A stretch of 64,000 nt of DNA from contig CAILVY010000238.1 in the NCBI GenBank assembly GCA_903837785.1, forward strand, positions 40,116-104,115, read 5' to 3'. Below are positions 14,579 through 60,461 of this stretch, piece by piece (the first letter of the stretch is position 1; each line of letters opens with the position of its first letter). Under the pieces are notes generated by a model that saw only the letters and a list, made by a program, of their open reading frames with translations, was not told the DNA's origin and searched no databases. This DNA comes from Candidatus Hydrogenedentota bacterium. GTDB lineage: Bacteria > Hydrogenedentota > Hydrogenedentia > Hydrogenedentales > CAILVY01. Position numbers and translations under genes: made by a program.

Positions 14579-14667
14579 GTCCTTGCCGTAAAGTTGATTG
14601 GCGGAACGGGACTGTTTACTGTACGTAGGCTGTGATTTGGGGCGAGGCCGTCAACGGGGTGACGAAC

Positions 14668-18017: not shown

Positions 18018-18249
18018 GATCGAGCCCTTTCGCGCTGGCTCCCGATACGATAGCCGTTCCCGGACGGCCCCGCAAACGGATAGTCGAGGCGGGATGCAGT
18101 CCCCTCGGCGCGGAGCGAAGGCCCGGCACCCCGGGCGACGCGTGCCAAGCACGAGCCGGAGATATTCATGCAGGCTGCCGTGTGTTGCCCGTTCCGTTCT
18201 CTCCGACAAGAAACGTCATGCCGGAAGTATGGCAGGCAGCGGCCCGAAC

Positions 18250-19848: not shown

Positions 19849-19989
19849 GGCATCCATCCTCCATTGTGCTCACGCGCCTGATGCGGCTCACGAAAGGAAC
19901 CGGCTCAAGCCACCCAGACACTCACGTTACAGGCCATGCGCAACGCCGTTACGCGCCCGTTCTCCCGCCTCAAACGTGAATTAGCTCGT

Positions 19990-25003: not shown

Positions 25004-25050
25004 GACGGGGACTCCTGGATGAACGTTGCGCCGAATGGGAGGAGCGTGTC

Positions 25051-25503
25051 TCATGATGCCCGCCGCTCCACGTGCCACCGGTACTGGGTGACGGTCCCAT
25101 CCGGCCCGAAGCTTAGGTCCGCCTGAAGCACGCACCGCGCCCAGAGGTGGTTCTCCGTCCCCCGCTCGCCGGTGGCGCGCAGCACATAGTCCCCGGGACC
25201 CGCGCCGCGCGTTACCTCGACGGCAAAGCGGCCGCCGTCCAGCCAGGTGTCTTTTTCACCCGTGTATGGACGCTTCGCACGCAACTCCGCGATCGCCTTG
25301 TCCAGGCCCGCTTCCGCGAGGCATTGCGCCACCGCGTCGTTTTCGGTCCGCTGGCCCTGTTTCAGCGTGACGTGCAGGTAGCTCCACACCGCGCCCGCGC
25401 CGATGCCCATCACGGCAACCAGCATAATCGCCATGATGAGTGCCGCGCCGCGCCGGCGGACTTCCGACCGTGCAGTGGAAATCTGCGGTGTGCTGTGCTT
25501 CAT
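25051..25503 (-). CDS. Pseudopilin-like small membrane-anchored protein (non-canonical: no Glu+5)
   Basis: [39 protein letters not shown]... has a basic leader followed by one hydrophobic helix. GGAGA is 7 nt upstream. Its ATG overlaps the upstream stop (ATGA). Confidence 0.45.
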
Positions 25504-26039: not shown

Positions 26040-26464
26040 CTCTTCTTCGCAATCAGCGTGTTCAACTGCTTCTCAACGACCCGCCCGTGCTCGCCCACCC
26101 ACCGCAACGCCACCCGCACCGACTTCAAGTCCGGGACGCCCGGATACTCCATGATTTCGACCGTCCCGGAGGCGCGCACCAGGCGGTCCATTTCCGGCGT
26201 TTGGCTCCGGAAGGGGCTCTTCCCCGCGGCCAGCGACTCAAACGGGCTTCCGCGGAGCGTCTCGATCTCATTGATGAGCACACGGCCGGCAATGCTGTAT
26301 TCATTGGCGACTTTCGCGCCGGTCAACGCGAGCGTATACATCTGCAGCGCCCCGAAAACCCCAACCGTGATGATGAAGATGGCGCAGGTCAGTTCCACGA
26401 GCGCCGCACCGCGCGTGCTGCGCCGATTCCGGCGCTGTAACGGGTTACCGCATTCCATGATCAC
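26036..26464 (-). CDS. Pseudopilin-like protein (GspH/I-like; non-canonical N-terminus)
   Basis: The N-terminus is RRNRRSTRGAALVELTCAIFIITVGVFGAL (basic leader plus hydrophobic helix). A GTG/ATG start overlaps the gspF-2 stop (GTGA). Confidence 0.5.
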   Translation of the reverse strand: MIMECGNPLQRRNRRSTRGAALVELTCAIFIITVGVFGALQMYTLALTGAKVANEYSIAGRVLINEIETLRGSPFESLAAGKSPFRSQTPEMDRLVRASGTVEIMEYPGVPDLKSVRVALRWVGEHGRVVEKQLNTLIAKKR

Positions 26465-28023: not shown

Positions 28024-29240
28024 GAGCCGGAGATCACATCGCCCAACGTGAAGATGGGCAGGTAGAGGGAAACCAGCAGACTGACAATGATGCCGCCCAG
28101 CAGCAGCACCATGATGGGCGCGGCCATCGTTCCGACCAGTTTGTCCCGCGTCGCGATTTCCCGATCGTAGGTGTTTGCCAGGTTTTCGAGGGCGTCCTCG
28201 GCGCGGCCGCGCTCCTCGCCCGTGGAGAGGAGCCAGCAGAAGTTGTGGCCGAAGAACCCCGTGCCCGAGAGCGAGTCCGCGATGCGTTCGCCGCCCGCCA
28301 CCTGAAGGCTCGCCTCCTCGACCGCCTGCTGCAGCAGCGGGCTGTCCGAACTGGCCGCGGCCAGCTCCAGGCTCTCGATGATCGGCACGCGGGAAGCCAG
28401 GAGCATGCCGAGGGTCCGGCTGAAGCGCGCCATGGCCATCAGATAGTGCATATGCCCCAGCACCGGCATGTGCATGCGCAGCCAGTCCAGCCAGGCGCTG
28501 CCGCTCTGGGTCCGCGCCAGGTAGGCCCGGAGCAGCCGTGCGGCAATGTAGCCCGCGGCAATCCCCACGACCACCGCCTGCCAGCGATGAACCATGAAAT
28601 CCCCCATGTCCACCCAGAACTGCGTCGGCCAGGGCAGTTGTCCGCCGAAGTCGTGGAAGATGTCCGCGAAGACGGGCACGACCTTGACCAGCAGGAAGCC
28701 CATGACGCAGGAGCCGATGAGCAGCACCATCACCGGATAGGCCATCGCCAATTGAAGGGTGTGTTTCACGCCAATCATGCGGGTCGTGTAATTGCACAGG
28801 AGCTGCAGCACGCCCGCGAGGTTGCTCGTCTTCTCGCCGGCCCGGATCACGCTCGGGAACAGCTTGGGGAAGCTCGCATGCTGCCGGGTGATGGCGTCTT
28901 CCAGCGAGACACCCTGTTCCAGATCCTTGTGCAATTGATCGAGCACCGGTTTCAGGCGGGAGCTGCGCAGATCCGCGGCCAGGGCTTTCACCGCCGGCGC
29001 CAGCGGCAATTCACTCCGCGCCACGGAAACCAGCTGGTCCGTGAGCACATTCAGTTCGTCCCAGGAAAGCCGTTTCGAAACGCGGAGCAGGCCGCGTTCC
29101 CGATGCAGTTCCTCGACCGTGTTTACGGTCAACCCACGTTCCTGAAGGACCTTCGTCACGCGGTGGGCCGAAGACTCCTCGATGGTGCCTTCCACGGGCT
29201 TCCCCTCGACGTCCAACGCCCGGTACTTGTAGAGTGCCAT
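28020..29240 (-). CDS. gspF: GspF/PilC-family type II secretion / type IV pilus platform protein, paralog 1
   Basis: The 406-aa protein starts MALYKYRALDVEGKPVEGTIEESS... and has two GspF repeats. It ends ...MVLLLGGIIVSLLVSLYLPIFTLGDVISGS. Confidence 0.85.
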   Translation of the reverse strand: MALYKYRALDVEGKPVEGTIEESSAHRVTKVLQERGLTVNTVEELHRERGLLRVSKRLSWDELNVLTDQLVSVARSELPLAPAVKALAADLRSSRLKPVLDQLHKDLEQGVSLEDAITRQHASFPKLFPSVIRAGEKTSNLAGVLQLLCNYTTRMIGVKHTLQLAMAYPVMVLLIGSCVMGFLLVKVVPVFADIFHDFGGQLPWPTQFWVDMGDFMVHRWQAVVVGIAAGYIAARLLRAYLARTQSGSAWLDWLRMHMPVLGHMHYLMAMARFSRTLGMLLASRVPIIESLELAAASSDSPLLQQAVEEASLQVAGGERIADSLSGTGFFGHNFCWLLSTGEERGRAEDALENLANTYDREIATRDKLVGTMAAPIMVLLLGGIIVSLLVSLYLPIFTLGDVISGS

Positions 29241-31381: not shown

Positions 31382-31873
31382 ATGGCGGAAACAGACACGC
31401 AGACATCGGTTGCCGGAAAACACCTCACTTTCCATCTGGGCGAGGAACTCTATGGCATCGAGATCCTCAAGGTGCAGGAAATCATCGGCATGATGAACGT
31501 CACGCGCGTACCGCGCACGCCGGATTTTGTGCGGGGTGTCATCAATTTGCGCGGCAAAGTCATTCCTGTGGTTGATCTGCGGCTCAAGTTCGGCATGGAA
31601 ACGGTTCTCGACACCGAACGCACCTGCATCATCGTGGTCCAAGTCGCGGGCGCCGAGTCCCGAGTGACCATGGGAGTCATTGTGGATGAGGTCTCCGAAG
31701 TGCTGGAGATTCAGTCCGGCCAAATCGAGCCCGCGCCTTCTTTTGGCGCGACCATCGACACGACGTTCATCCGGGCCATGGGCAAGGTTGGCCAGAAGGT
31801 TGTCATTTTGCTCGACGTCGATCGGGTGTTGTCCACCAGGGAACTGTCGGCCATTGAACAGGCCTCCGTGTAG
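31382..31873 (+). CDS. cheW: Chemotaxis coupling protein CheW
   Basis: The 163-aa protein is ...HLTFHLGEELYGIEILKVQEIIGMMNVTRVP...GVINLRGKVIPVVDLR... Confidence 0.9.
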   Translation: MAETDTQTSVAGKHLTFHLGEELYGIEILKVQEIIGMMNVTRVPRTPDFVRGVINLRGKVIPVVDLRLKFGMETVLDTERTCIIVVQVAGAESRVTMGVIVDEVSEVLEIQSGQIEPAPSFGATIDTTFIRAMGKVGQKVVILLDVDRVLSTRELSAIEQASV

Positions 31874-32106
31874 AGGCGAACGTTAGCACGACATGATTAG
31901 GCGGAAGGGTGTGCGGCAAGTGTGCCCTTCCTCAAAGGTGAGTGAGCATTAGGAGAGCAGGAGGGGCGTCCTCGCTCTGGTTCATCTCTTCGTGACTTCC
32001 ACGGCGAGATGAAGGCACCCATATCCCTCGGTCGAGGCGTCCCCAGTGAATCGGCATCAACGGGCGCATCCAGTGCGTCCGGCGGCGCCGCGTAGGAGGG
32101 CATGCC

Positions 32107-34179
32107 ATGTTGAAACGTTTTGGTCTGGCCGGGAAGATTGGCGCTGGATTCTGCGTGTTGATCCTGATCTCCGTGATCGGAGGCGCATTCTGTGTGTACA
32201 ACATGCTTCAGGTGCGAAGAGATGCGTGGGAGACGGCCAATGAAAACGTTCCCGAGGTGACGCTCGTGAACGAAATCGAGCGCCACGCGCTCTTGACGAT
32301 GTATGCCATGCGCGGCTACGGCTTTTCTGAAGACAAAACCTTTTACGAAGAGGGCCAGCAAGAACTCGGCCACACGAGGGAACTCCTTAAGTCGGCGCAG
32401 GAGCTGGGTTCCCGTTCGGAGAACCTGGCGGGGCTCAGGAAGGCCGCAGACGAAGCTCAAGACAGTGTGACGGGCTATGCGGCCATTGCCGACGAGATGG
32501 CGAAGGAAGTCACCCAAATCCAGGACTGCCGGACCCGCCTCAATGAAGCGGCCAAGCTTCTCATCCAGAGCTGCGCGGAATATGAGCAGAATGAAGCGCA
32601 GAAACTGCGATCCGAGATCCTGCGGATGGGAGAGGCCGGCGAACGGGCCTCCTCAGGCGCGAACACCCTTCCGTCCGCCGCCGGCACAGCGCCACCCCAA
32701 GGCGCACCGGTTACGCCGGAAAAAGTGTTGCAGCGGTTCGACAAGATCGAGACGGCCTCGGCGATCGTCAATTTGGCGAATCAGGCCCGTCTGGAGGTGT
32801 GGACCGCCCAAGCCATTCATCAGCCCAACGGCCTGGAACAAGCTATAGAAGCCTTGGAAGGCATTAACACGCAGTTCGAAGGGCTCCGGGCGAAGAGCAC
32901 CCAGCAAATCAACCTGGATCAAATCGACAACGCGCGCAAGGCGGCGGCCGACTACAAGGCGCTCATCCAGGAGCTTCTGAAGAGTTGGCGCGCGCTCGAA
33001 CAGGTGAACGAGAGCTTTGACCAGAAGGGCCATGCCGTGCTGGCGGCGGCCGAGAAGAAGGCCACGGAAAGCATGACCGATGCCAGGAACATGGCCAACG
33101 CCACCGTGAAATCGCTGAATACCGCCTCAGCCGCCACAGGCGCCGGATTGGCCGCCGCGCTGATCCTGGGACTGTTGCTCTCCATCCTCATCACGCGCAG
33201 CGTCACCCGGCCAATCAACAAGGTGATCCGCAAGCTCACCGAAGGCTCGGAGCAGGTCTTCGATGCGGCCAGCCAGGTCGCCCAAACGAGTCAATCCACC
33301 GCCGAGGGCGCCAGCAAGCAGGCGTCCAGCCTCGAAGAAACCTCGGCCTCCCTCGAAGAAATGGCGTCCATGACCCGGCAGAACGCGGAAAACGCCGGCA
33401 TGGCCAATACGACCGCGGACCAGGCCAGAGAAGCCGCGGACCGCGGAATCACCTCCATGCAGCGGATGAATGACGCCATCCGGAAGATCAAGGAATCCTC
33501 GGATCAGACGGCCAAGATACTGAAGACCATCGACGAAATCGCCTTCCAAACCAATCTCCTGGCGCTGAACGCCGCGGTGGAAGCGGCGCGTGCCGGCGAG
33601 GCCGGCAAGGGCTTTGCCGTCGTGGCGGAAGAAGTGCGCAGCCTCGCCCGCCGCAGCGCTGAAGCCGCGAAAGACACCGCCTCCCTGATCGAAGGCGCGC
33701 AACGGAACTCGGAACAGGGCGTGGCGGCTTCGCTGGAGGTCACCGAAATCCTGGAACACATCGCGGACAAAGCGCGGAAAGTGACCCAACTTGTCAGCGA
33801 AGTGTCCGCGGCCACCAAAGAACAGGCCCAAGGCATCGCTCATGTCAACACGGCGGTCTCCCAAATGGACAAGGTCATACAATCCAATGCGGCCGGTTCC
33901 GAGGAAGCGGCCTCGGCAGGAGAGGAACTCTCCGCCCAGGCCGAAGAACTGAATAAGATGGTCGCGGAATTGGTGGTCGCCGTGAGCGGCGAAAAGAGAG
34001 CACGCAACGACTACGAATCGGACGGAACGGTCAGGAAGCGCACCGCACTCCCGGTGCCGGAGCGAAAGGCAGGCAGGGCCGCATTGCCGGCGTCAGATCT
34101 CTTCGTGCCCGCCAGCCAAAAGCCCCCCCTCCCCCAAGCTGTCATCCCCCTTGACGACATGGGGCTTGAGGATTCCTAG
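32107..34179 (+). CDS. Methyl-accepting chemotaxis protein (4HB sensor, HAMP, MA domain)
   Basis: An N-terminal TM segment and a C-terminal TM/HAMP region are present. The signalling-domain core reads [50 protein letters not shown]. The C-terminal tail reads [12 protein letters not shown]. Confidence 0.9.
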
Positions 34180-34546
34180 CAGCGCACGCCGCCCGTCCTC
34201 TTACGGGGACTCCCGGCAGGCCGACGATCGCGTGGGAGTTTATCGCAGTATCCATAGTACACTTCCGCTGTAGGGACACGGCAATTCCCTTGAACTTGCG
34301 TGATTTGCGGTATATGCACAATTGTGGCATGATCCACCACGTTCGGTCCGAGGTGTGCAGACCCGGCAGAACGCACAGGGTTACGTACGATACATTGCGC
34401 GTACAATGCGGCGCAAGGCCGTCGGCTCCCGAAGGATATGCGGATTGTGAGTGCGCGCGTGCCACCGCGGACAACGCGGTCCGTTCTAGCTCGGTCAGCG
34501 GCGATAACGGAGTGATGCACAACAGCATCACGTGAGGAATGTCACC

Positions 34547-36328
34547 ATGGGCATCAATGTCAAAATGGTCCTGATGACCGGCGTCAGCATCCTGCTGCTG
34601 ATCAGCGTCAGCATCCTGGGCGTGTTTGAACTGCGCGTCCTGCGCAGCGACTTGGACCAGGTGGTGCGCCGCGAATTCGTGCCGCTGATCGATCAGCAGA
34701 TGATCCCGCTGCTCAAGGAAGATGTGCTGGCTCTGGTCAACGGCGATTTCCCGAAGGTGGCCGAGCTCAACACCGGCTGGATCCTGATGCTGGAAGCGGA
34801 CCGCGACGTCTATCAGGCACTCGTCGCGGAGAAGGAGGCGCTCGAATCCGCCTCGCCGGAGATGCTGGCCAAGGCCGACAAGGACAACACGGACAACATC
34901 GGCCAGGCCGAAGAGCGCATGAAAAAGGCCTCGGCCACTTTCATTGCCGAAGAAGCCAAGGCCATGTATCAACAGTTCGTGCAGCGTTTCGAAACCTGGA
35001 AGCAGCAGTCGCGCGGGGTGATTCAGGCCGCCGCCACGCCGGGCAGCGGCGTCCACTCGACGGACACGGGGGGCGAAACGAGCAGCTTCCAGATAATGCG
35101 CGGCCTGATCGACACGCTGCAGGCGGAACAGGAGAAGGCCATCACGAAGATCCAGGAGGGGGTCCGGGCCAGAAACGGGCGGGTCAACGAACGCGCCCAA
35201 GCCATCGAGCAGAAGAAGGGGGAGGTGCTCGTGCTCGCCACGGCCAGCGAAACGGCCTCCGCGCGCGGACAGGCGCTCTTCCTGTTCGGGGGCATCCTGT
35301 TCAGTGCGTTCGGTATCGCCTTCGGCACGTGGATCGCCCGCTCGATCACCCGGCCCCTGCACCGCATCATCGCGGGACTGGCTTCCGGGGCCGATCAGGT
35401 GACGGGCGCCGCGGGCCAGGTCGCCCAGTCGAGCCAGGCCATGGCCGACGGCGCCAGCCATCAGGCATCGAGCCTGGAGGAGACCTCTGCCTCCCTGGAG
35501 GAGATGGCTTCCATGACCCGGCAGAACGCCGAAAACGCGCAGACAGCAAACGTTATGGCCAACGAGGCGCGCGACGCCGCGGACAAGGGTCTGGCCGCCA
35601 TGCAGCGCATGAATGAAGCCATCGCCCGAATCAAGTCCTCCTCGGATCAGACGGCCAAGATCCTCAAGACCATCGACGAAATTGCGTTTCAGACAAACCT
35701 CCTCGCGTTGAACGCCGCGGTCGAGGCGGCCCGGGCCGGAGAGGCCGGAAAAGGCTTCGCCGTCGTTGCGGAGGAAGTCCGCAATCTCGCCCAACGCAGC
35801 GCCGAAGCGGCCCGAAACACCGCCGCGCTGATTGAAGGCGCGCAGAAGAACTCGGATCAGGGCGTCGCCGCCTCGGCCGAAGTGGGCGGAATTCTGGAAC
35901 AGATTGCGGCCAAGGCCCAGAAAGTGACCCAACTTGTGGGCGAGGTTTCGTCCGCGACGAACGAGCAGGCCCAAGGCATTGGGCAAGTCAACACAGCCGT
36001 CTCCCAAATGGATCAGGTGACCCAGGCCAACGCCGCCAGTTCCGAGGAAGCCGCGTCCGCCGGAGAGCAACTCTCCGCCCAGGCCGCCGCCCTCAATGCG
36101 ATGGTCGCCGAACTGGTTGGCATTGTCGCGGGCGCGCATGCCCGCCGTCAGGACACGGCGCATCACGGCGCGGCCCCGAAGACCCCGAAGTCCCGACCCT
36201 CGGCTCTGCCGGAACGGCGCACACGGAAGATCCCTTTGCCCGCCTCGCCCGGCCAGACCGCCCACAAGAAGCTGCGGGCGCCCGAAGATGTCATCCCGCT
36301 CGATGACAAGGACCTCGAGGACTTCTAG
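34547..36328 (+). CDS. Methyl-accepting chemotaxis protein, paralog 2
   Basis: The ATG at 34547 follows a GTGAGGAA ribosome-binding site (the track start at 34532 is GTG). The signalling core is identical to the first MCP ([50 protein letters not shown]). The tail reads [12 protein letters not shown]. Confidence 0.9.
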
Positions 36329-41737: not shown

Positions 41738-43189
41738 TCATGATCTCCTCGCGGGCAACAGCGCCCGGATTAGTCCCCGGACATCATGCACAGTCACCAC
41801 CCGCAGGGCAAGGCACCCGCAAACGAAGAGGCCCACGGCCGCGATTCGCCATGGAATGCCGCCTTGTCCCGCCCAAAGCAGCAGCCCGGCCGCGAGCATG
41901 ATTCCGTGCGGCTTCAGGAGATGGCGCGTCTGGACGCCCAGGCCGCGGCGCCGGACGCACGCGGTTTGTGCCGCGCAACTGAATGCCGCGGCGCAGAGCG
42001 CGGCCAAGCCCGCGCCCGTAATGCCCAGGAGCGGCAGCAGGACGAGATTGGCCGCGATGCTGAAGGCGGCTGTGGCAACGTTGATGGCCGTCACGAGGCC
42101 GGGTTTCCCCAGCGCGATCAGCGTCTGTCCCATGAGCCCGGCCTGCACCGCGACCGCGATGGCCGCCATGAGCAGTCCCAGCACGGAAGTGGCGGCCAGA
42201 TAGTCCCGGTTGAAGAGCAGGATCAGCAGCGGCTCCTGCACGAGAATCGTCATCAAAGCCGTGAGATATCCGAAGAAGGCCAGGATGGAGGAGGTGTGCG
42301 TGAGAAAACGCGCCGCCTCGCCTCGCTCGTTCCGGGCAATCATCTCCGAGATGGTGGGAAGGAACGGCACGGCAAGCGCCCCGAGAAAACGCGACACGAG
42401 CACCGGCAGCCGCTTCGCCATTTCGTACAGCGCGACCGCGGCCGGCGACTGCAGCACTAGCAGCAGGAACATCGTGTCGAAGCGCTGGAACACGAAAGTC
42501 AACAGGCTGTTCACGTAGAGCGGCATGCTGAAACGGACGCATTCCCGGGCCAGGGCGAAATCCGGATGCCAGCGCGCGCCCCGCGGCAGCGCGGCCAGCA
42601 ACCACGCCACCGCCACCGCGTAGGCGGCCGTCGTCGTGATCGACAGCGCGGCCACGCCCCCCTTCAGGACCCAGATGAAGAGGAATACGAACAGCACTTG
42701 TGCGGCGGACGACGTGACGATGCCCATGGCGCGCGGGCCATAGCGGTTGAAGCCCGCGAGCGCCGCCATGGACGTGTCGCGAACGATGCCCACGCCGAAC
42801 AGGGGCGGCAGGAACAGGAGCCAGGGATAGACGCCCTGCCACGAGGCAGGGCCGACGCGGAATTGCCACAGCACGGCCGGCACGGCCCAGCAGACGATCG
42901 CGAGGAGAATGAGCAGGAGATGCTGAAAGGACAGGCAGGCCCCGGAGATCGCGGCACGCCGGTCCTCCGGCGCGGCCCCGATGAGTTTGGGCAGCGAAAC
43001 CGCCAGGCCGAGGTTTCCGGCAATGTTGATGAAATCCGCCCAGAGCAGGAGGAGGGTGAAGATCGCCACGCCCGCCTGATCGAGGACATTCGTGAACATC
43101 TTGCCCACGGCCAGCATGGCGAGCGTGGAGACGAAGATGCTCGCGCCCGAGAGCACGCCGCCACGGACCACCGATCTGCCGCGGCTCAT
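41738..43189 (-). CDS. Wzx-like polysaccharide flippase (MOP superfamily)
   Basis: The 483-aa protein is a polytopic membrane protein of about 12-14 TM segments, typical of O-unit flippases. Confidence 0.75.
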   Translation of the reverse strand: MSRGRSVVRGGVLSGASIFVSTLAMLAVGKMFTNVLDQAGVAIFTLLLLWADFINIAGNLGLAVSLPKLIGAAPEDRRAAISGACLSFQHLLLILLAIVCWAVPAVLWQFRVGPASWQGVYPWLLFLPPLFGVGIVRDTSMAALAGFNRYGPRAMGIVTSSAAQVLFVFLFIWVLKGGVAALSITTTAAYAVAVAWLLAALPRGARWHPDFALARECVRFSMPLYVNSLLTFVFQRFDTMFLLLVLQSPAAVALYEMAKRLPVLVSRFLGALAVPFLPTISEMIARNERGEAARFLTHTSSILAFFGYLTALMTILVQEPLLILLFNRDYLAATSVLGLLMAAIAVAVQAGLMGQTLIALGKPGLVTAINVATAAFSIAANLVLLPLLGITGAGLAALCAAAFSCAAQTACVRRRGLGVQTRHLLKPHGIMLAAGLLLWAGQGGIPWRIAAVGLFVCGCLALRVVTVHDVRGLIRALLPARRS

Positions 43190-45648: not shown

Positions 45649-45861
45649 CCCGGAAGTGCCGCGGCACCCGCTAACCCGCGACTTCTGCCAATGCCCGGAC
45701 AATCCGGGGTGCTCCGTTCCCGCGGCGTTCCGTTGAAGTTCCCGCGGCCTGCCGCTATACTGAGCGGCAGTGGGCTTGAATCACGTCCGAGAAGCGGTCA
45801 AGGGGACGGAGGGCGTGGTTTGCAGTTGGAATATGAGAATCCGAAAAGGTGCGTGAATTCC

Positions 45862-47649
45862 ATGTTTGGCTTTGCCTCTTCTATACATGACCTCTCCGAG
45901 ATGGCATGCACGGGGAAGCTGGAGCCGGCGTACGGGCGGGATCTCGAGGTGGCCGAGGTGCTCCGCATGCTCTCCCGGGTCTACTCGAAAAGCGTTCTCG
46001 TCGTAGGGCCGAAAGGCGCCGGAAAAACGCGCTTCGTGCGGGGGGTCGTGCTCGAGGAGCGGGAGCGTGTGGAGAAGCTGGGCGTATCGGGACTGCAATT
46101 CCTCGAGCTGACAGCGACCGTGATGCGATCCCGGACGGTGCGAATTCGCGATGCCGTGCTCGCCCTCATTCGATCGTTCAAGTCCAATGCACAGCAGATT
46201 CTCGTGGCGGATGATGCATTCCCGCTGCTCGATCCCCGGGAAGACCCCTTCAGCCCGGCCGGTTTGCTGAGCGCGGCCATCAAACAGGGCGACGTGTGGT
46301 GCGTCGCCACGATGACAACGGAGGAATACGAGAGCTTTGCCGGGCTGGATCCCGCGGGTATCCGAACGTTCCGGGTCGTGCAGTTGCGGCCGTTTCCGGA
46401 AGAACGGACCCTGGAAGAGCTGAAGCGATTGGTCCCGCAACTCGAACGGGACTACCGGGTGAAGATCAACGAGGCAACGCTGCGCCGGGCCGTCCGCCTT
46501 ACCCAGGAGTACCTGCCGGACGAGGCGCTGCCGGGAAAGGCCATCACGGTGCTGACGCAGGCCTGCGCCTTGTGCCGGCAGCGGTTGGACACACACGAAA
46601 ACGTGGACGTGCGACTCCTCGATTCGCCGATGCAGTTCCTGGGCAACAGTGTCAGTTCCTACGAACTCAAATGCGTCGTGGCCAAGCGGGCGTCGGTGGA
46701 CGTGTTCGGGGCGGAGCTCGATCGCTGGAAAACGACGCGGACAAGCCACATGAAGACGACGGTCTTCGGCCAGGACGCCGCCATCGAGCATATGATCTCC
46801 GTCATGGCGAACATCCGCGATGAATATCAGCGGGCGGCATGCCCGGCGGGGGTCCTCCTCTTCGGCGGCCCGCCCGGTTCCGGCAAGGTGCACGCCGCAA
46901 AGGCACTGACCTACACCCTCATGCAGTCGTACAACGAGTACATGGAATTCAGCCTGGGGGAAGGCCCCGATCCCAGGGTGATCGCCCGCTTGCTGAAAAC
47001 GATTTGCGACAAGGATCTCACCCCCGAAATCAGCGGCCCGGAGGATGCGGAACGCCCCGCGGCCTTGCGCGTCGTCGTCATCAAGGGAATCGAACGCGCG
47101 CATCCCAACGTGCTGGGGCCGTTGTTGCGGATCGTCACCCACGATTGTTCCAGTGAGTTGATGTGTGCCACACCGCCGACCCACAAGTGCCTGTTTATTT
47201 TCACACTCAATGTGGATCCCCGCCGCACCGACATGCGAAATCCCGGATGGCTGAGAGACTTGCTGAATTCGCTCGTGCGCCGGGAGATCGTCGACCGCTT
47301 CAATGCCATCGTTCCCTTTGGCGCGTTGGACGCCCCGTCACAGGCCGCCATCGTCATGCAGGCCATGAACGAGGTGCGCAACGAAACAGCGTTGCGGGGC
47401 ATCCAGGTCGTGATGGAGAACGAGGTGGTGCGCCTCGTGACGGAACGCGGCTACACGAGCGAAGGCGGCGCATCGGACCTGCTGATGACCTTTCAGCGGC
47501 TCGTGGTCGAGCCGCTCTACTGCATCATCAAGGCGGACATCCTGCCGCAGGGCAGCGCTATCGACATCTTCGTCCGCGACGGCCGGGTCGTCGTGTGCCG
47601 CAGAGACGCCTGGAAATCGCGGCGTCCCCAAGGCGCGGTCCAGCACTGA
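45862..47649 (+). CDS. ClpA/ClpB-like double-AAA+ protein lacking N and M domains, with degenerate catalytic motifs (putative pseudo-ATPase)
   Basis: D1 aligns with ClpB D1 (GRDLEVAEVLRMLSRVYSKSVLVVGPKGAGKT; LPGKAITVLTQA), but its Walker B reads ILVADD (DE to DD). D2 has Walker A GPPGSGKV (T/S to V) and Walker B VVVIKGIERAHPNV (DE to KG). The track ORF starts at 45691; the start was placed at the ATG at 45862, which is consistent with ClpB D1 spacing. Confidence 0.65.
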   Translation: MFGFASSIHDLSEMACTGKLEPAYGRDLEVAEVLRMLSRVYSKSVLVVGPKGAGKTRFVRGVVLEERERVEKLGVSGLQFLELTATVMRSRTVRIRDAVLALIRSFKSNAQQILVADDAFPLLDPREDPFSPAGLLSAAIKQGDVWCVATMTTEEYESFAGLDPAGIRTFRVVQLRPFPEERTLEELKRLVPQLERDYRVKINEATLRRAVRLTQEYLPDEALPGKAITVLTQACALCRQRLDTHENVDVRLLDSPMQFLGNSVSSYELKCVVAKRASVDVFGAELDRWKTTRTSHMKTTVFGQDAAIEHMISVMANIRDEYQRAACPAGVLLFGGPPGSGKVHAAKALTYTLMQSYNEYMEFSLGEGPDPRVIARLLKTICDKDLTPEISGPEDAERPAALRVVVIKGIERAHPNVLGPLLRIVTHDCSSELMCATPPTHKCLFIFTLNVDPRRTDMRNPGWLRDLLNSLVRREIVDRFNAIVPFGALDAPSQAAIVMQAMNEVRNETALRGIQVVMENEVVRLVTERGYTSEGGASDLLMTFQRLVVEPLYCIIKADILPQGSAIDIFVRDGRVVVCRRDAWKSRRPQGAVQH

Positions 47650-47722
47650 CGTGCGCTCTGCCGAACGCAAAGCGGCTTTCCTGTGTCTTGTCGGTCTACC
47701 GCCGTTCTGTTAGACTTTCCGC

Positions 47723-50700
47723 ATGAGCGAGAATAGAGCGATGCACGCGAAAGGCCGGCGCTGGAAGCGCTGGGCGGTGATTCTGGCGATTCTTTTGGGG
47801 ATGGGAATCGTCGCATGGCAGGGGCTGAAGCAGTATCTGCACGTGGAGCGCTACTCCCCTTTGATTTCCGCCAAAATCACGGAACTCACCGGTCTCCCCG
47901 CGTCGATTGGATCGCTCGATTTGGCATTGTTCCCCACGCTCCAATTGACGGCGCGGGACGTCGTGGCCGGCGAGGGGGATTTCCGGCTGGAGGCGGCTCG
48001 CGTCGGCATTCACGCGGGCCTGCTGGGCCTGCTCCAACGAGATCTCGCGATTACTGTCCAGGCGCCGGAAGTGACGCTGTATCTCCCCGCGGACGACGCC
48101 GGGCTCGCGAAGCGCGTTGCCGAGATGGCGGAACACATCCAGAGCGCGCAATCTTCGACCCCTCCGCAAACCCGCCCTTCGGACGGGGGCGGCCTCCGCG
48201 TGGCGGGCGTCGCGGTGAACGTGCGGCAGGTGGCCGTGGACGCTCTGGCCGTGAATCGCGGCGACGTGCTATTCGCGGAAGGCCGTGTCGAGGCGCGGGA
48301 CATTCTGTCGCCGAAGATCAGCCTGGACGTCAACGCCCGTCTCCCGAAGCTCTCCAAAGACATGGAGTTGTCCGCGGCGGCGGCCCTGTTGCTGGCGCCG
48401 GGTGAATCGCCCCGCCTGGAGGGCACGGCCTCGTTGCGGCAGGCGGATCTGGAAGACCTCTTGCAGGACGAGCGCATTCCACACATGCGGCTCAGCCTGG
48501 ACGCGAAGCTATCGGGAACCTTGCCCGAAGAAGTCCGAGGTGAACTGAGCGGTGCATTCGAGACGGAAGTGTCCGATGCGTTTGCGGGAAAAATCGGGGG
48601 CAGCGCGGAATGGAAAGCGGGGCAATTCACCCTGAGCAACGCGGAAATCGCTTCGCCCAGCCTGAAAGTGAACGCGGAAGCCTCGTGGAATCCGGGCGGA
48701 GCCGCATCCCTCAAAGTGAACTCCGCGAAGGCGGAGGGCGAAGGACTGCGGGTCTTGCTGGCGATGGCGCCCATCGCGGGAATCCGGCTGGAACCCGTGG
48801 ACCACGCGGCGTTTAACCTGTCCGGCCTCGAAGTGCGGCCGGTGCCCGGCGCGGCGTTGGGCGTGGCTTCGGGCGAACTCGCCTTCCAGGGACTTGATGT
48901 GGTTGCGGCGGTCAGCCGAAGCAAGCTGTTGAGTAATGTCACGGGCAAGATCAACGTTGAGAACAACGCGCTGCAACTGCACGAACTCGGCGTGGAAGGG
49001 ATGCGCATTTCCGGCGCGGTCAAACCGGACCTGGGCACCGGCGCGGTGCATGTGGACCTGCGCGCCGAGGCGGATTTGTCCGCGCCGCAAGTGACGGCGT
49101 GGTTTCCGGGAAACCTCGTGTCGGAAACCGGCGGCCGCCTGACCCTGACACGGCTGGCCGGCACGATCACGCCCGGGAAGGACATTCCGCCGGACCTGGA
49201 GTTGGCATGTGTGCTTCAAGAGGGGCGTCTCGCCTTGGCCGCACCCGGATATCAGGATCGCCTCTCCGGAGTCACCGCCGACTTCGCGCTGAAAGACAAC
49301 TCGATCGACGGAGCGCTGAGCGCGAATTCCGAACGGCTCGGGGCCCTCCGGTTCGAGGGCGGGTACGCGCCGCTCGAGTGGTTGCTCCGCGGCGTCGTGC
49401 ACATGGACGTGGCGCGTGCGGCACAATCGTTTCTTCAGACGGGTCCGGCGCAGGACTATGGCTTGCCGCTGGCCAAGACCCTGGGTGAATCCAAATTCGA
49501 TGTCACACTGCGCCTGCCCGGGCCGAAAGACCGCGCAATCAGCATCGAGGCGGCCCGGCAGGGTGTCCCGGCGCTGGAAGGAAAGCTGGTGATTGCCCCC
49601 GGGGCCGACGCGCCGTTGCGGCGTTTGGCGGTCTCCGCGGACATGCCGCTGGACTTGTTCGCGGCCATGCTGCCCGGCGCTGTCCGGACGGAAGGGAATG
49701 CGAAACTCTCCTTCCGCATGGGCGCAGAGGAAACGGGACTGCATCTTGAAGCGGACCTCGCAGGGGCGAGGCTCCGGGTGGGTGATTACGTGGAGAAGAA
49801 GCCGGGGGACGCCATGGGGGTGGCCGTCAAGTACCGGCAGGCGCCGGACTATGCGCTGGAGTCGGCGACGGTGACCCTGCTCGGAGAAAGCGCCGAGCTG
49901 CAGTTGGCCGGAGCGGTGCCGGGCATCCCTGCCTTGAACGTGAATCTCGCCGGGCTGTCGCCGTTGCTGGCGAAGGGGGGCTCGCTGTCCGGCCGGGTGA
50001 CGGGCGCCGTGGACTTGTCGCCGTTCAAGGCGAAGCTGCAGCTCGACGGCGCCGGCATTGCGCCGGCACCCGAAGTGGCGATCAATTCAGTAACCGGCCA
50101 GGTCGCCTATGAGGCCGGCGCGTTGCGTTGCGAAAGCCTCCGGGTCCTGGGCGCGGACAGCGACTGCACGGCCGATGCGACATTGCAGAACCAGGTCCTT
50201 GACGCGAGGGTGACGGGACAGAAGCTGAATCTCAATGCGGTGACGGCGCTGTATGACGCGTTCACCGCGCCGCCGGAGGGGACGGCGTCTTCGGCTGCAG
50301 CCCCGGCACTGCCGCCCGGCGCCCCCGCGCAGCGCATCACGGGGCGGGTCTCCGTTCAACTGGAGTCGCTGTTGTATCGCCGGGCGCGAGCGGAAGCGCT
50401 TCGTGCGGATGCCGCACTGACGCCGCAAGGCATCGACATCCATAATCTTGCGCTTCGCCAGGGCGCCGGCTCGGCACAAGGCGCGGTGCATTTGGCCTAT
50501 GGCACGCCCAATGTGCTGGAAACCAGTTTGAAGCTCAGCGGGCTGGACCTGGAGTTCATCGACGGCCTGGCGTTCGCGGAATCGCGCGGCATGCGCGGCG
50601 CCGTCACGGGACCCGTGAATCTCCGCGTGCCCCTGGCCAGCGGAGACACCCTGTACCGGGGGCTCAACGGAACCGTGGATGCGAGGGCGGAAAACGGCAC

Positions 50701-51169
50701 TTATGGCCGGGTGCGGTATGCCACTGAGCTGTTGACGGTATTGAAGGGCCTGGAGATCGTCCGGCTCAAGATGCCGCGGCTCAGGGATGAAGGCCTGACT
50801 TTCAAGACTTCCACACTCAAGCTTCGGATCACGGACGGACGGATAGCCGTGGAGGAATTCTCCGTGGAGGATCCGGCCTACGCCATGGCGGGCGGCGGCA
50901 CGATCGATCTCCCGGCCGACGCCATGGATGTGATGATCGGATTCAATCCGCTCGAATCGGTAACCGGTCTGGTGAAAGTAGTCCCGGGTGTGGGACAGGC
51001 TCTGGACCTGCTTAAGGATGGCACCGGCCTGCGAATTCGCGCCTCCGGCTCGCCATTCAGCCCCACGGTGCGGCCCGAGGCGGGCCTGCTGCCAGTGGGG
51101 ACGGAGCCCTCAAAAGGGCTGCGCGGAGTGGAAAACGTCGTAAAAGAGCTAATCAAGCCCCTGCGATAG
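47723..51169 (+). CDS. AsmA-family (TamB-like) large envelope protein
   Basis: The 1148-aa protein has an N-terminal signal-anchor (RWKRWAVILAILLGMGIVAW) followed by an AsmA-like N-terminal region (YSPLISAKITELTGLPASIGSLDLALFPTLQLTARDV). The rest is a long beta-rich Ala/Gly/Leu repetitive body. Confidence 0.6.
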   Translation: MSENRAMHAKGRRWKRWAVILAILLGMGIVAWQGLKQYLHVERYSPLISAKITELTGLPASIGSLDLALFPTLQLTARDVVAGEGDFRLEAARVGIHAGLLGLLQRDLAITVQAPEVTLYLPADDAGLAKRVAEMAEHIQSAQSSTPPQTRPSDGGGLRVAGVAVNVRQVAVDALAVNRGDVLFAEGRVEARDILSPKISLDVNARLPKLSKDMELSAAAALLLAPGESPRLEGTASLRQADLEDLLQDERIPHMRLSLDAKLSGTLPEEVRGELSGAFETEVSDAFAGKIGGSAEWKAGQFTLSNAEIASPSLKVNAEASWNPGGAASLKVNSAKAEGEGLRVLLAMAPIAGIRLEPVDHAAFNLSGLEVRPVPGAALGVASGELAFQGLDVVAAVSRSKLLSNVTGKINVENNALQLHELGVEGMRISGAVKPDLGTGAVHVDLRAEADLSAPQVTAWFPGNLVSETGGRLTLTRLAGTITPGKDIPPDLELACVLQEGRLALAAPGYQDRLSGVTADFALKDNSIDGALSANSERLGALRFEGGYAPLEWLLRGVVHMDVARAAQSFLQTGPAQDYGLPLAKTLGESKFDVTLRLPGPKDRAISIEAARQGVPALEGKLVIAPGADAPLRRLAVSADMPLDLFAAMLPGAVRTEGNAKLSFRMGAEETGLHLEADLAGARLRVGDYVEKKPGDAMGVAVKYRQAPDYALESATVTLLGESAELQLAGAVPGIPALNVNLAGLSPLLAKGGSLSGRVTGAVDLSPFKAKLQLDGAGIAPAPEVAINSVTGQVAYEAGALRCESLRVLGADSDCTADATLQNQVLDARVTGQKLNLNAVTALYDAFTAPPEGTASSAAAPALPPGAPAQRITGRVSVQLESLLYRRARAEALRADAALTPQGIDIHNLALRQGAGSAQGAVHLAYGTPNVLETSLKLSGLDLEFIDGLAFAESRGMRGAVTGPVNLRVPLASGDTLYRGLNGTVDARAENGTYGRVRYATELLTVLKGLEIVRLKMPRLRDEGLTFKTSTLKLRITDGRIAVEEFSVEDPAYAMAGGGTIDLPADAMDVMIGFNPLESVTGLVKVVPGVGQALDLLKDGTGLRIRASGSPFSPTVRPEAGLLPVGTEPSKGLRGVENVVKELIKPLR

Positions 51170-51430: not shown

Positions 51431-51596
51431 TTAAACCTACCTGACCACCAGGTCCCTCCGGGCACTATGGCAATGCTCCGGGGCAGGCCTGGCAGTCTGT
51501 CGGATCCGGCGGGCGTTGGGTTTGGACTCTGTGACTCCTGTAATGGCAGTCGGTTTGTCAGGAGGGTCTACCCTCGAACCCCTGGAGGAGAATGCT

Positions 51597-52940
51597 GTGA
51601 AGACGTATCTCTATTCGCGAAGAATTGCCGCGGCGGGCAAAGCCGCGTTGGCCATGGCGTGTCTCGCGCTGCCCGCAGCGGCGCAGACGCCCGCCCCTGC
51701 ATTGAACACCGGTGACACGGCGTGGATGCTCACCTCCACCGCGCTGGTCTTGTTCATGACGATTCCGGGACTGGCCCTGTTCTACGGAGGCCTGGTCCGC
51801 TCCAAGAACGTGCTGTCGGTGCTGATGCAATGCTTCGGGATCACGGCGATGGTGACGGTTCTCTGGGGCCTGTATGCGTACACTTTCTCGTTCGCCACGG
51901 ACAACATGGCGGCGAACGTGAAGAACCTCAACACGTTCATCGGCGGCCTGAGCGGCCTCTTCCTCGCGCACTGCAAGGCGGACACGCTCCACGGCACGAT
52001 TCCCGAGAGCGTCTTCATCTGCTTCCAGCTGACCTTCGCGATCATAACGCCCGCGCTGATTTGCGGCGCGTATGCCGATCGCATGAAGTTCTCCGCCATG
52101 ATGCTCTTCACGGCGCTGTGGCTGACGCTCGTGTACGCGCCGATCTGCCACATGGCGTGGTCCGGTCCCGGCGCCCTGTACTTTGACTGGGGCGTGCTCG
52201 ATTACGCGGGCGGCACCGTCGTGCACATCAACGCGGGCATTGCCGCGCTGGTTTCGTGCCTCGTGCTCGGCAAGCGCCGGGGTTATCCCGACACGCCGAT
52301 GCCTCCGCACAACCTCACGATGACCGTGACCGGCGCGTGCATGCTGTGGGTGGGCTGGTTCGGATTCAACGCGGGCAGCGCGGTCGCGGCCAACGGCGAC
52401 GCGGGCATGGCGATGCTGGTGACGCAGTTGGCGACCGCGATGGCGGCCATGACCTGGATGGCGATTGAGTGGGTCAAGCACGGCAAGCCGAGCGCCCTGG
52501 GCACCGTGACCGGCGCGGTGGCGGGCCTGGTGGCGATCACCCCGGCCTCCGGTTCCTGCGGGCCGATGGGCGCGTTTGTCATCGGATTCGCGGCGAGCGC
52601 GGTCTGCTTCGTGGCGGCCACCTCGGTGAAACGCTTCTTCGGCTATGACGACTCGCTGGACGCCTTCGGCGTGCACGGCGTCGGCGGAACCGTGGGCGCG
52701 CTCTTGACGGGCATTTTCGCGGCGCCGGCCCTGGGCGGCCACGTGGCCACGTATCCCGGCATGGGCACCCAGATGATCTATCAGACGCTGGCGGTCGTGA
52801 TTACGCTCGTGTGGAGCGGAGTGCTTTCCTACATCATCCTCAAGGTCCTCGACGCGGTCATCGGACTGCGCGTGAATGCGGAAGAGGAAACCGAAGGGCT
52901 GGACAGCACGCTGCACGGCGAGACAGGCTACATCCTATGA
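51597..52940 (+). CDS. amtB: Ammonium transporter (Amt family)
   Basis: A GTG start follows a GGAGGAG ribosome-binding site at 6 nt. A signal peptide is present. Amt signatures include ...DFAGGTVVHINAGIAALV... and ...FGVHGVGGTVGALLTGIFA... Confidence 0.9.
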   Translation: MKTYLYSRRIAAAGKAALAMACLALPAAAQTPAPALNTGDTAWMLTSTALVLFMTIPGLALFYGGLVRSKNVLSVLMQCFGITAMVTVLWGLYAYTFSFATDNMAANVKNLNTFIGGLSGLFLAHCKADTLHGTIPESVFICFQLTFAIITPALICGAYADRMKFSAMMLFTALWLTLVYAPICHMAWSGPGALYFDWGVLDYAGGTVVHINAGIAALVSCLVLGKRRGYPDTPMPPHNLTMTVTGACMLWVGWFGFNAGSAVAANGDAGMAMLVTQLATAMAAMTWMAIEWVKHGKPSALGTVTGAVAGLVAITPASGSCGPMGAFVIGFAASAVCFVAATSVKRFFGYDDSLDAFGVHGVGGTVGALLTGIFAAPALGGHVATYPGMGTQMIYQTLAVVITLVWSGVLSYIILKVLDAVIGLRVNAEEETEGLDSTLHGETGYIL

Positions 52941-52956
52941 GGGCGGCGGCTTCTAG

Positions 52957-53358
<402 letters not shown>

Positions 53359-53433
53359 GAACGGCCCCGAAGTCTATATCGAGAGCGTCAAAAGCATGGG
53401 CATTGGCGCCCGGCAACCGAAAGGGAAAAGCAG

Positions 53434-54858
<1,425 letters not shown>

Positions 54859-58842: not shown

Positions 58843-59030
58843 GCTTCAGTCTCCCTCCGGTTTTGGCTGCGGTCTCATGCGGGAGCGGTGAAGAGAACGG
58901 CAATGACGGCATCAACGCCGGACCCGCGCGCCTTCCGGGGCATCATAGCATGAGGGCAGATGCGGGAGAACTCCTTGCGTTGCGCAGGCGAACCGGTTAG
59001 TGTGTGACGAGAATTGCGGGAGACTGGGCC

Positions 59031-60461
59031 ATGATGCTTTCAGTGCTGGGCGAGAACGAAGTTTGGCGGCTGCACGAGGCGTCGCTTATGATCCTGCGCG
59101 ACGTGGGCGTGCATCTCCCGCACGAGGATGCCCTGGCCTTGTTCGAGGATGCCGGCGCACGCGTGGATCACGCGCGGCAACACGTGTTCATTCCGGAAAC
59201 GCTCGTGACTTGGGCCCTGCAGGTCTGCGGCAAGCAATTCACGCTCTACGGCCGGGACCGGAGCAAGACCGCCGTGTTTGGCGCGGGACAACGCAACTAC
59301 AACTCGGTGGCGGGCGAGGCATTCTGGGTGGATGATCAGGCGAATCGGCGCTATGCCTCGCTGGAAGACGTCGCCACGGCCGCGCGTCTCGTGGATGCCC
59401 TGCCAAACATCAACATTGCGGGCGCCATGAGCGATCCGCACGAAATGCCGCCGGAATACCGCTGTGTCTTTGTGGCCGCGGAACTGCTGAAGAACACCAC
59501 AAAGCCGATCATGTTCTGGTTCCACGATCGCGCCTCGGCCAAATTCGTCCTGGAGCTGTTCGAGATCGTGGCGGGCAGCCGGGAGCAGGCGGCCGCCTTC
59601 CCCGTCGCCTATCCGTTCCTGGAGCCCATCAGCCCGCTCCGCTTTCCGCGCCACGGCGTGGACCTGCTCTTCGAGACGTGCAAGGTGCCGCTGCCCGTAC
59701 CGATCGGCCCGATGGCCCAAGTCGGTGCGACGGCCCCCGGCACCCTTGCGGGCACGCTCGCCCAGGAGAATGCGGAGATCCTGGCGGGCATCTGCCTCGT
59801 GCAGTTAATCCATGCCGGCACGCCGGTTTGCTACGGCGGCATCCCGCACGCCTTTGACATGCGCACTACCCAGATGATCTTCGCGGGGCCCGAACAGGCC
59901 CTGATGGCCGTGGCCATGACGCAGCTCGGCAAAACCTACGGACTGCCGGTTTACATCAACGTGGGGCTGACCGACAGCAAGGTGCCGGATGGACAAGCGG
60001 GCATCGAGGCGGGCATCACGCTCGCCATGGGGGCGATGGCGGGCGCGGACGTCTTCGGGCATCTCGGCATCTGCGGCATGGACCAGGGCAGTTCGCTCGC
60101 CATGCTCATGCTTCAGCATGAACTCATCGGCTATGTGGAGCGGCTCGCGCGCGGCATCGCCGTAAACGAGGATACCCTCGGACTGGACACCATCCGGGCG
60201 GTCGGGCCGGGCGGCAACTTCCTCGCGGAAACCCATACCGCCCTGCATTTCCGGAATGAACTCTGGTTCCCGGCGCTCCTCGACCGGCATTACTTCGAGA
60301 CCTGGGCCGAACTCGGCCGCCCGGACATCCTTCAGCGCGGCATCGCCGCCAAGAACGAGATCCTCGCCGCGCATCAGCCCGCCCCGCTGCCCGATGACGT
60401 GAACAAGGCCGTGGAACGTCTGCTGACGGATGCCAGGAAGCATCTGGGAAAGATTTCTTGA
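59031..60461 (+). CDS. MttB-superfamily methyltransferase (non-pyrrolysine trimethylamine/glycine-betaine methyltransferase homolog)
   Basis: The N-terminus (LSVLGENEVWRLHEASLMILRDVGV) and TIM-barrel core are typical of COG5598 proteins. I found no in-frame amber codon. Confidence 0.75.
   Translation: MMLSVLGENEVWRLHEASLMILRDVGVHLPHEDALALFEDAGARVDHARQHVFIPETLVTWALQVCGKQFTLYGRDRSKTAVFGAGQRNYNSVAGEAFWVDDQANRRYASLEDVATAARLVDALPNINIAGAMSDPHEMPPEYRCVFVAAELLKNTTKPIMFWFHDRASAKFVLELFEIVAGSREQAAAFPVAYPFLEPISPLRFPRHGVDLLFETCKVPLPVPIGPMAQVGATAPGTLAGTLAQENAEILAGICLVQLIHAGTPVCYGGIPHAFDMRTTQMIFAGPEQALMAVAMTQLGKTYGLPVYINVGLTDSKVPDGQAGIEAGITLAMGAMAGADVFGHLGICGMDQGSSLAMLMLQHELIGYVERLARGIAVNEDTLGLDTIRAVGPGGNFLAETHTALHFRNELWFPALLDRHYFETWAELGRPDILQRGIAAKNEILAAHQPAPLPDDVNKAVERLLTDARKHLGKIS

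Follow-up and report, generated by a model that had tools for sequence, protein, structure and literature searches.

The two genes described here lie in the same orientation within a window of 64,000 nucleotides, which is the whole stretch of DNA that was analyzed (Table 1). An earlier note, made from the sequence, had placed the 1148-aa gene B co-directionally 73 nt behind gene A and the pair downstream of a surface-polysaccharide cluster, and both statements hold. The genes identified upstream of gene A encode GT4, GHMP kinase, methyltransferase, SGNH esterase and UDP-GlcNAc 2-epimerase proteins, and the cluster also contains a weak, sub-threshold match to GNVR (Wzz-type). A sigma-70-like match is consistent with a putative promoter belonging to gene A itself, downstream of the epimerase gene; the region contains two such matches where 0.7 would be expected. 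The gap between gene A and gene B shows no significant RNA structure (fold z-score 0.32). From the arrangement of the sequence, co-transcription of the two genes is possible, as they are co-directional and the short gap has no terminator-like structure. No Rfam family, tRNA or meaningful repeat was found in the region. DUF1559/N-methyl proteins and a large number of glycoside hydrolases suggest that the host is a PVC-like or Hydrogenedentota-like bacterium.

Table 1. Features of the gene A/gene B locus; positions are those of the window.
Feature	Positions	Strand	Residues	Remarks
Sigma-70-like promoter match TTGAAG-17-TATACT	45733..45761	+		~100 nt upstream of gene A start; consensus match only
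Gene A	45862..47649	+	595 aa	ClpA-derived double-AAA+ protein, no N-domain; member of the "LPGKA" pseudo-ATPase clade
D1 Walker A GPKGAGKT	46006..46029	+	49-56	Intact; read directly; Lys in 31/34 family members
D1 Walker B ILVADDAF	46198..46221	+	113-120	Catalytic Glu replaced by Asp; read directly
LPGKA signature	46528..46542	+	223-227	Gly for the invariant Asp of canonical LPDKA
D2 Walker A GPPGSGKV	46867..46890	+	336-343	Lys kept, Mg-binding Thr replaced by Val
D2 Walker B VVVIKGIERAHP	47071..47106	+	404-415	Asp-Glu replaced by Lys-Gly (VIKG)
Intergenic gap gene A/gene B	47650..47722	+		73 nt; no terminator-like hairpin, no promoter-like match
Gene B	47723..51169	+	1148 aa	AsmA/YhdP-like bridge-like lipid-transfer protein
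Gene B N-terminal membrane anchor	47771..47830	+	~17-36	Hydropathy; model helix 14-36; single hydrophobic segment

The open reading frame that encloses gene A runs from 45691 to 47649 (+). The ATG at 45862 is backed as the start by the Clp-like alignment, by database entry P0001 (595 aa) and by the closest homologue, which begins MFGFAASIQDLSE; the upstream extension to 45691 was dropped because the homologues start at the MFGF methionine. The first residues of gene A are equivalent to residue ~172 of ClpA. The NCBIfam ClpA model (TIGR02639) matches residues 8-568 in one stretch, from model position 172 to 731, and the ClpB models match in two stretches on either side of the M-domain, as is also seen with PDB sequences. 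This indicates that gene A has neither an N-domain nor an M-domain. The Clp_N repeats (PF02861), which are present in all canonical hits, give no match in gene A. Two Pfam families score above their cut-offs, AAA_lid_9 (42.8 bits) and ClpB_D2-small (24.3 bits), and the scores against the NCBIfam equivalog models are all far below theirs (ClpA, 153.4 bits vs. 993; ClpB, 137.2 vs. 1232; TssH, 118.2 vs. 885). The AlphaFold model (pLDDT 82) retrieves ClpC, ClpB and ClpA protomers as its best Foldseek matches in the PDB (E 1e-34 to 1e-30, probability 1.0). The earlier description of gene A as a Clp-like double AAA+ protein without N-domain and M-domain is thus borne out by the Clp-type Pfam and NCBIfam matches and by the predicted fold. 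Hydropathy reveals no hydrophobic segment in the protein. A reading of gene A as a component of anti-phage defence was rejected after comparison with the PADLOC defence-system models, which gave no significant match and local P-loop matches only (best DolB, 26 bits over 60 residues).

The sequence motifs quoted in the earlier note, ILVADD as the D1 Walker B, GSGKV as the D2 Walker A and a D2 Walker B without Asp-Glu, are exact on direct reading; the Asp-Asp pair of the D1 motif is encoded by GAT GAT at 46210-46215. The segments that align with the pore-1 loops, MRSRTVRIRD in D1 and LKTICDKDLT in D2, carry no Tyr or Phe at the pore-loop position, and the ClpP-docking loop, NPGWLRD, is ~8-10 residues shorter than the corresponding AIGFGRD... 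of ClpA. With ClpA of the E. coli type (PDB 1KSF, 6W1Z, 7UIV) gene A shares the tandem AAA+ modules without an M-domain, collinearity over ClpA residues 175-720, the protomer fold with the AAA_lid_9 and ClpB_D2-small domains, and both GxxGxGK P-loops. However, it is only ~25% identical to ClpA and reaches 153 bits against an equivalog cut-off of 993; without an N-domain it has no docking site for ClpS or substrates; and it has lost the Walker-B Glu in both rings, the KYR and GYVG pore loops and the sensor-2 Arg, has a shorter PGWLRD loop for the IGF/IGL ClpP-docking loop, and reads LPGKA for LPDKA.

Gene A has relatives that share these changes. Searching 1.84 billion representatives with a profile recovered about 40-45 proteins of 575-650 aa without an N-domain, whose scores exceed those of the canonical Clp proteins or are interspersed with them. 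The clade is rare and comprises at least ~40 clusters at 50% identity. When 34 aligned short clade members are compared with 37 canonical Clp proteins, the catalytic Glu is found in all 37 canonical proteins, but in the clade in one member for D1 and in none for D2. The signature that gives the clade its label is equally clear-cut, with Gly (LPGKA) in 34/34 short members and Asp (LPDKA) in 37/37 canonical proteins. The P-loop Lys is kept in D1 by 31 and in D2 by 33 of the 34, the Thr of the D2 Walker A by seven and the Asp of the D2 Walker B by ten. The pore-loop aromatics of D1 and D2 are absent throughout the clade, the ClpP-docking loop is lost and sensor-2 is mostly lost. A rough neighbour-joining tree separates the clade from the canonical Clp proteins. 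The earlier prediction that both modules bind nucleotide without hydrolyzing it is reasonable as far as the family is concerned, because both P-loops with their lysines are its best-conserved parts; for D1 of gene A, however, weak or slow hydrolysis is possible, since K55, T56, D117, D118, the sensor-1 T152 and R168, one arginine finger, are present.

A scan of GTDB representative genomes yielded one true member, in a metagenome-assembled genome labelled "uncultured Nitrospiraceae". The further loci retained from that scan are 21-33% identical to gene A and seem to be canonical Clp genes. A metagenome scan with ten clade members produced only ClpA/ClpB-like loci, and no new clade loci, among the matches listed. 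A word-prefiltered homologue search with the family profile returned only the four closest clade members and canonical ClpA; the word-based pre-filter falls short of the remaining members. A stand-alone bacterial Hsp100 derivative with both rings dead and P-loops kept is absent from the curated family libraries and the literature searched, and the gene A clade is a real and apparently undescribed family of ClpA-derived non-motor proteins that keep their nucleotide-binding loops.

Gene B was described earlier as an AsmA-family protein with an N-terminal membrane anchor, and this assignment is supported. Its own match to Pfam YhdP (PF13116; E 7.7e-11, 41.1 bits) lies just under the 46-bit cut-off and its match to Pfam AsmA (PF05170) reaches 12.3 bits against a cut-off of 29.8, but homologues with 47% identity pass (P0122, YhdP 48.9 and AsmA 33.5 bits; P0123, YhdP 63.3 bits). 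The word-based search for relatives of gene B returned only three homologues. In the predicted structure the transmembrane helix has ~16 cytoplasmic residues ahead of it and an unbroken beta-repeat behind it (residues 45-545, pLDDT ~70-80). Foldseek places LPD-3/BLTP1 at the top of the PDB matches (E 9e-9) and also finds Vps13, Atg2 and TamAB; with pLDDT 51 overall and a poor model past residue 545, the fold match is only moderately reliable. Gene B thus resembles YhdP, TamB and AsmA in its N-terminal anchor, its long beta-rich periplasmic body, its YhdP/AsmA-type C-terminal region and these structural matches, and differs from them in its strong divergence, visible in the sub-threshold YhdP score, and in that no TamA-like or YdbH-partner-like gene is found beside it.

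One could assume that gene A is a decaying paralogue, or that errors in sequencing or assembly produced its altered motifs, given that the catalytic motifs are degenerate and that all curated Clp models score far under cut-off. This explanation is effectively refuted: the 595-codon frame is unbroken, its GC3 of 0.79 is of the coding type seen in the neighbouring genes, the identical protein is present on five contigs, the fold prediction is confident, and the same substitutions recur in dozens of homologues. The earlier note had named intact motifs in homologues as the sign of a sequencing artefact; the homologues are without intact motifs, and both Walker-B glutamates are lost clade-wide. Full-length reading frames persist in the clade at 23-53% identity, which suggests purifying selection rather than decay. 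An alternative is that gene A is a slow but working ATPase, in which weak hydrolysis in D1 would power the remodelling or chaperoning of one particular client and D2 would form a nucleotide-bound assembly ring, much as the NSF D2 and PEX1/PEX6 D1 rings serve only nucleotide-bound assembly. The D1 module of gene A is compatible with this idea: it has GKT in Walker A, the Walker-B Asp, an acidic side chain where the Glu would stand, the sensor-1 Thr and one of the arginine fingers, and in 14/34 clade members Asp takes the place of the D1 Glu. However, 19/34 carry Gly, Asn, Ser or Pro there, so that the property conserved in the clade is not hydrolysis; the pore-loop aromatics are missing from both modules, and the arginine fingers are mostly gone (D1, 10/34 and 3/34; D2, 8/34). 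We therefore regard a slow ATPase as unlikely.

A different question is whether gene A is a dedicated cytoplasmic partner of gene B, as the earlier note had proposed. The two genes would then form an operon through which the nucleotide state influences how the envelope bridge is assembled or works. The orientation of the genes and the gap between them would be in keeping with such a pair, and a 53% identical homologue of gene A (L001) likewise has a giant protein, of 1212 aa, encoded ~70 nt downstream. The latter is GH42-like and unrelated to gene B (BLASTP E 0.03), and we dismissed it as an orthologue of gene B. The remaining neighbourhoods also speak against the pair, and the earlier note had itself named a lack of conserved synteny as weakening it. 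An AsmA-like neighbour is found at none of the five further informative gene A-family loci and a Clp-like neighbour at neither of the two informative gene B-family loci, a small sample in which all loci have at most 53% identity; the 39% and 33% identical relatives of gene A, and more distant ones, are flanked by sulfatase, aminotransferase or opposite-strand genes. These counts leave out locus L009, a gene B relative whose sequence ends 336 nt upstream and is uninformative, and four contigs of ~3 kb or less, which have no neighbourhood context. In addition, the ~16 residues that gene B exposes to the cytoplasm give an AAA+ protein located there little to grip, gene A, without pore-loop tyrosines, would be unable to pull on such a tail, and no paper linking AsmA-like proteins to Clp was found in the literature search. 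A dedicated pair is thus quite improbable, and the adjacency looks lineage-specific and incidental, not part of a conserved system. Since few loci were sampled, all with at most 53% identity, it is possible that the two genes did become coupled in this lineage, and only recently.

In our view, the locus probably contains two functionally independent neighbours, a nucleotide-binding, non-motor derivative of Clp and an ordinary AsmA/YhdP-like lipid-transfer protein, whose adjacency is particular to the lineage. Gene A would be soluble and cytoplasmic and belong to a rare clade that descends from ClpA-type Hsp100 proteins and keeps both P-loops under selection. The loss of the N-domain, the Walker-B Glu, the pore Tyr and the ClpP loop, with the P-loops kept, points to a binder and not a threader: most likely, gene A binds nucleotide without threading polypeptides or feeding ClpP. 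It might act as a nucleotide-gated scaffold or regulator instead of a motor, and one may speculate that its partner is an active Hsp100 or another client. Gene B would be anchored in the inner membrane and span the periplasm as a beta-groove protein, presumably carrying phospholipid to the outer membrane as in its family. The two genes may be co-transcribed without forming a conserved system.

Catalytically dead AAA+ modules are well-known scaffolds inside eukaryotic and organellar machines, and inactive scaffolds or regulators include NSF D2, PEX1/PEX6 D1, the clamp-loader delta/delta' subunits and the chloroplast FtsHi pseudo-proteases. The last of these are described in PMC8197885. The pattern in gene A is the same, in that the AAA+ fold is kept and the hydrolysis residues are lost, with the nucleotide-binding loop retained, as it is in several of the inactive rings. 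In those systems, however, the dead module adjoins an active ring or paralogue in a known complex, whereas gene A is a stand-alone bacterial protein with both rings degenerate and no partner conserved in its neighbourhood. A tentative extension, to which we give a modest chance, is that the LPGKA clade comprises unrecognised bacterial Hsp100 pseudoenzymes, stand-alone double-ring proteins that hold ATP in both modules and never hydrolyze or thread. They would sense nucleotide and thereby regulate or cap other machines; canonical Clp hexamers, for instance, might be blocked by them or take them up as subunits. In this lineage one was perhaps also recruited into an operon with an AsmA-like lipid bridge.

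The interest of the locus lies in the pseudo-ATPase clade and not in the pairing of gene A with gene B. An AsmA-like partner, had support for it existed, would have been relevant to outer-membrane lipid transport, but it is unsupported here. If the clade proteins regulate proteostasis machines or sense nucleotide, they would represent a new functional class in a heavily studied family. For genome annotation, the labels that clade proteins now carry, "ClpA", "ClpC" or "AAA family ATPase", are misleading. A minor point of annotation also concerns gene B: the exact 1148-aa product is absent from the protein collection, which makes it possible that gene callers may use the second ATG at 47741 (Met7) as the start, making the gap to gene A 91 nt.

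The protein encoded by gene A, the Clp-like double-AAA+ gene, aligns over residues 8-568 with positions 172-731 of the NCBIfam ClpA model in one unbroken stretch, and the ClpB, ClpV and ClpK/G models match it in pieces. Its scores against the curated NCBIfam Clp models are all far under the cut-offs; judged by sequence, it lies outside every curated Clp equivalog. Pfam AAA_lid_9 and ClpB_D2-small match above threshold, the PDB sequence matches are ClpB, ClpC, Hsp104 and ClpA, and in Foldseek the AlphaFold model (51 sequences; pLDDT 82, pTM 0.70) finds protomers of ClpC, ClpB and ClpA as its best PDB matches (E 1e-34 to 1e-30, probability 1.0). These results agree with the earlier note in describing a Clp-like protein with two AAA+ modules (D1 and D2) and neither N-domain nor M-domain. 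No hydrophobic segment was found in the protein, which is therefore cytoplasmic. The ORF is open from 45691; we assigned the start to 45862 because the database entry for this protein (P0001), the closest homologue (with the same MFGF methionine) and the Clp alignment all begin there.

Aligned with canonical ClpA, gene A retains an intact D1 Walker A (GPKGAGKT; GxxGxGKT in ClpA). The D1 Walker B reads VADD instead of IDE, and in D2 GPPGSGKV replaces GPTGVGKT in Walker A and VIKGIERAHP replaces LDEIEKAHP in Walker B, confirming the degenerate motifs reported earlier. Further elements are missing: the D1 pore loop (YRGDFE in ClpA) has no counterpart, the D2 pore loop (GYVG) is absent, sensor-2 is GAS instead of GAR, and the ClpP-docking loop is shorter, with PGWLRD in place of IGF. 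Slow hydrolysis could be kept in D1.

Intact motifs in homologues would have pointed to a sequencing artefact. In a word-based search the only close relatives are three proteins of 53, 39 and 33% identity, and canonical ClpA comes next at about 25%. When 1.84 billion representatives are searched with a profile, about 40-45 clusters (at 50% identity) emerge; their proteins lack the N-domain, are 575-650 aa long and score from 1045 bits down to the canonical Clp range. We compared 34 full-length members of this short family with 37 canonical proteins. All 37 canonical proteins carry each of the residues counted, together with Asp in LPDKA, a position that is Gly (LPGKA) in all 34 short proteins. 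In the short family the Walker-B Glu survives in one D1 and in no D2; the D2 Walker-B Asp is found in 10 of the 34, the D2 Walker-A Thr in seven, the D1 arginine fingers in 10 and three, the D2 arginine finger in eight and the sensor-2 Arg in seven. However, 31 retain the P-loop Lys of D1 and 33 that of D2, and no variation occurs at the P-loop glycines. It follows that selection has preserved the nucleotide pockets together with the fold, whereas the capacities for hydrolysis, for sensing between subunits, for gripping substrate and for docking ClpP were discarded. The motif loss in gene A is a trait of the family and not an artefact.

The LPGKA signature and a rough neighbor-joining tree suggest a single origin of the short family. 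One subclade carries an N-terminal zinc-ribbon-like extension (CPxC...CRxCG) of about 60 residues, seen as CPxCR...CRxCG in the database proteins P0129, P0131, P0132, P0134, P0135 and P0141; one subclade member bears the annotation 'AAA family ATPase [Candidatus Hydrogenedentota]'. In the longer proteins P0155, P0169, P0159 and P0178 (744-785 aa) the alignment begins at about residue 150-180, so an N-terminal region like that of canonical Clp is present. Their Walker B is partly degenerate (IDD, VDN, LEN, FDA) and they have no LPGKA signature. Catalysis may have been lost more than once among Clp paralogues.

The gene A protein would bind nucleotide without, or nearly without, turnover, would be incapable of translocating substrates, and might serve as a nucleotide-dependent scaffold or regulator. 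In its mode of working it would be least like the motor ClpA and nearer to inactive AAA+ modules with assembly or regulatory roles, such as NSF D2, PEX1/6 D1, clamp-loader delta/delta' and FtsHi. PADLOC defence models gave no real match to gene A, and a literature search found nothing on such a pseudo-ATPase Clp family.

Although divergent, gene B belongs to the known AsmA/YhdP-like family, and the earlier assignment, including the N-terminal anchor, stands. It matches Pfam YhdP at E 7.7e-11 (41 bits, slightly below the 46-bit cut-off), AsmA weakly at the N-terminus, and the Leptospira-type GspN model below threshold (36.6 bits; cut-off 50). Two of its three homologues (47-51% identity) score above the cut-off for YhdP, AsmA or both. 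Although the AlphaFold model has low overall quality (pLDDT 51), it shows a transmembrane helix at residues 14-36 followed by a long beta-repeat at pLDDT of about 70-80 up to residue 545; its best PDB matches in Foldseek are bridge-like lipid-transfer proteins, LPD-3/BLTP1 (E 9e-9), then Vps13, Atg2 and TamAB. Only about 16 residues face the cytoplasm. Presumably the protein transfers phospholipids to the outer membrane like other AsmA-like proteins. The 1148-aa product is absent from a 15-billion-protein collection that contains its neighbors' products; gene B is probably called from another start in databases, e.g., Met7 at 47741, which would make the gap 91 nt.

Coordinates of the genes discussed (in the window unless a locus is named)
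Feature	Position	Strand	Remarks
Gene A	45862-47649	+	595 aa
Gene B	47723-51169	+	1148 aa; starts 73 nt 3' of gene A
amtB / P-II (glnK-type) / glnA cluster	51516-54858	+	directly 3' of gene B
Three sizeable ORFs	41738-43189, 17046-18209, 18250-19857	-	483, 387, 535 aa; GC3 coding-type
Two tandem GspF-type genes; two DUF1559/N-methyl proteins	26461-29240, 7312-8301, 24242-25135	-, +, -	coordinates given jointly
Chemotaxis cluster, MttB-family gene, B12-binding radical-SAM gene	31382-36328, 59004-60461, 353-1780	+, +, -	coordinates given jointly
1212-aa protein, locus of the 53% relative (L001)	11861-15499	+	70 nt downstream of the gene A relative
amtB/P-II pair, locus of the 39% relative (L003)	7463-9221	-	directly upstream of the gene A relative, divergent

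The earlier note had also proposed that genes A and B form a dedicated pair. They are indeed co-directional, with a coding-type GC3 pattern like that of neighboring genes, and neither a terminator-like hairpin nor a promoter match lies in the 73-nt gap, which folds no better than shuffles. Co-transcription in the window is possible and, if real, a local arrangement. Among gene A relatives, the 39% one is followed by a sulfatase and the 33% one by an aminotransferase, P0130 has opposite-strand genes on both sides, and P0132 has a Ser/Thr kinase in divergent orientation on one side and a convergent alginate-export porin on the other. The protein downstream of the 53% relative matches GH42 and GH42M domains and was ruled out as a gene B relative (BLASTP E 0.03). 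The layout there, a Clp-like gene and then a giant protein, equals that of the window, with an unrelated partner. One gene B relative has a sulfatase upstream and another small ORFs; the third contig is cut too near the gene to give a context. From these five gene A and two gene B contexts, the Clp-like/AsmA-like adjacency is therefore seen in the window only, and gene A has no conserved neighbor. A literature search found nothing on an AsmA-Clp link. Thus the Clp derivative with degenerate catalysis is upheld, but its pairing with gene B as a system is not, and the interest lies in the pseudo-ATPase clade. The presence of amtB and P-II genes near the Clp-like gene in both the window and L003 may reflect residual synteny with gene B inserted, or may be a weak hint of a link to nitrogen regulation.

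The polysaccharide-type cluster noted earlier is present upstream of gene A, with an SGNH esterase, a methyltransferase, a GHMP kinase, a GT4 glycosyltransferase, an unassigned 483-aa ORF and a GNVR-like protein (Wzz-type; a weak, sub-threshold match) on the - strand, then a UDP-GlcNAc 2-epimerase on the + strand. The three ORFs in the table match no Pfam family at the thresholds applied; 41738-43189 sits within this cluster. The window also holds T2SS/T4P platform (GspF-type) and prepilin-like (DUF1559/N-methyl) genes, a small chemotaxis cluster of a CheW and two MCP genes, a trimethylamine methyltransferase-like (MttB-family) gene and a B12-binding radical-SAM gene.
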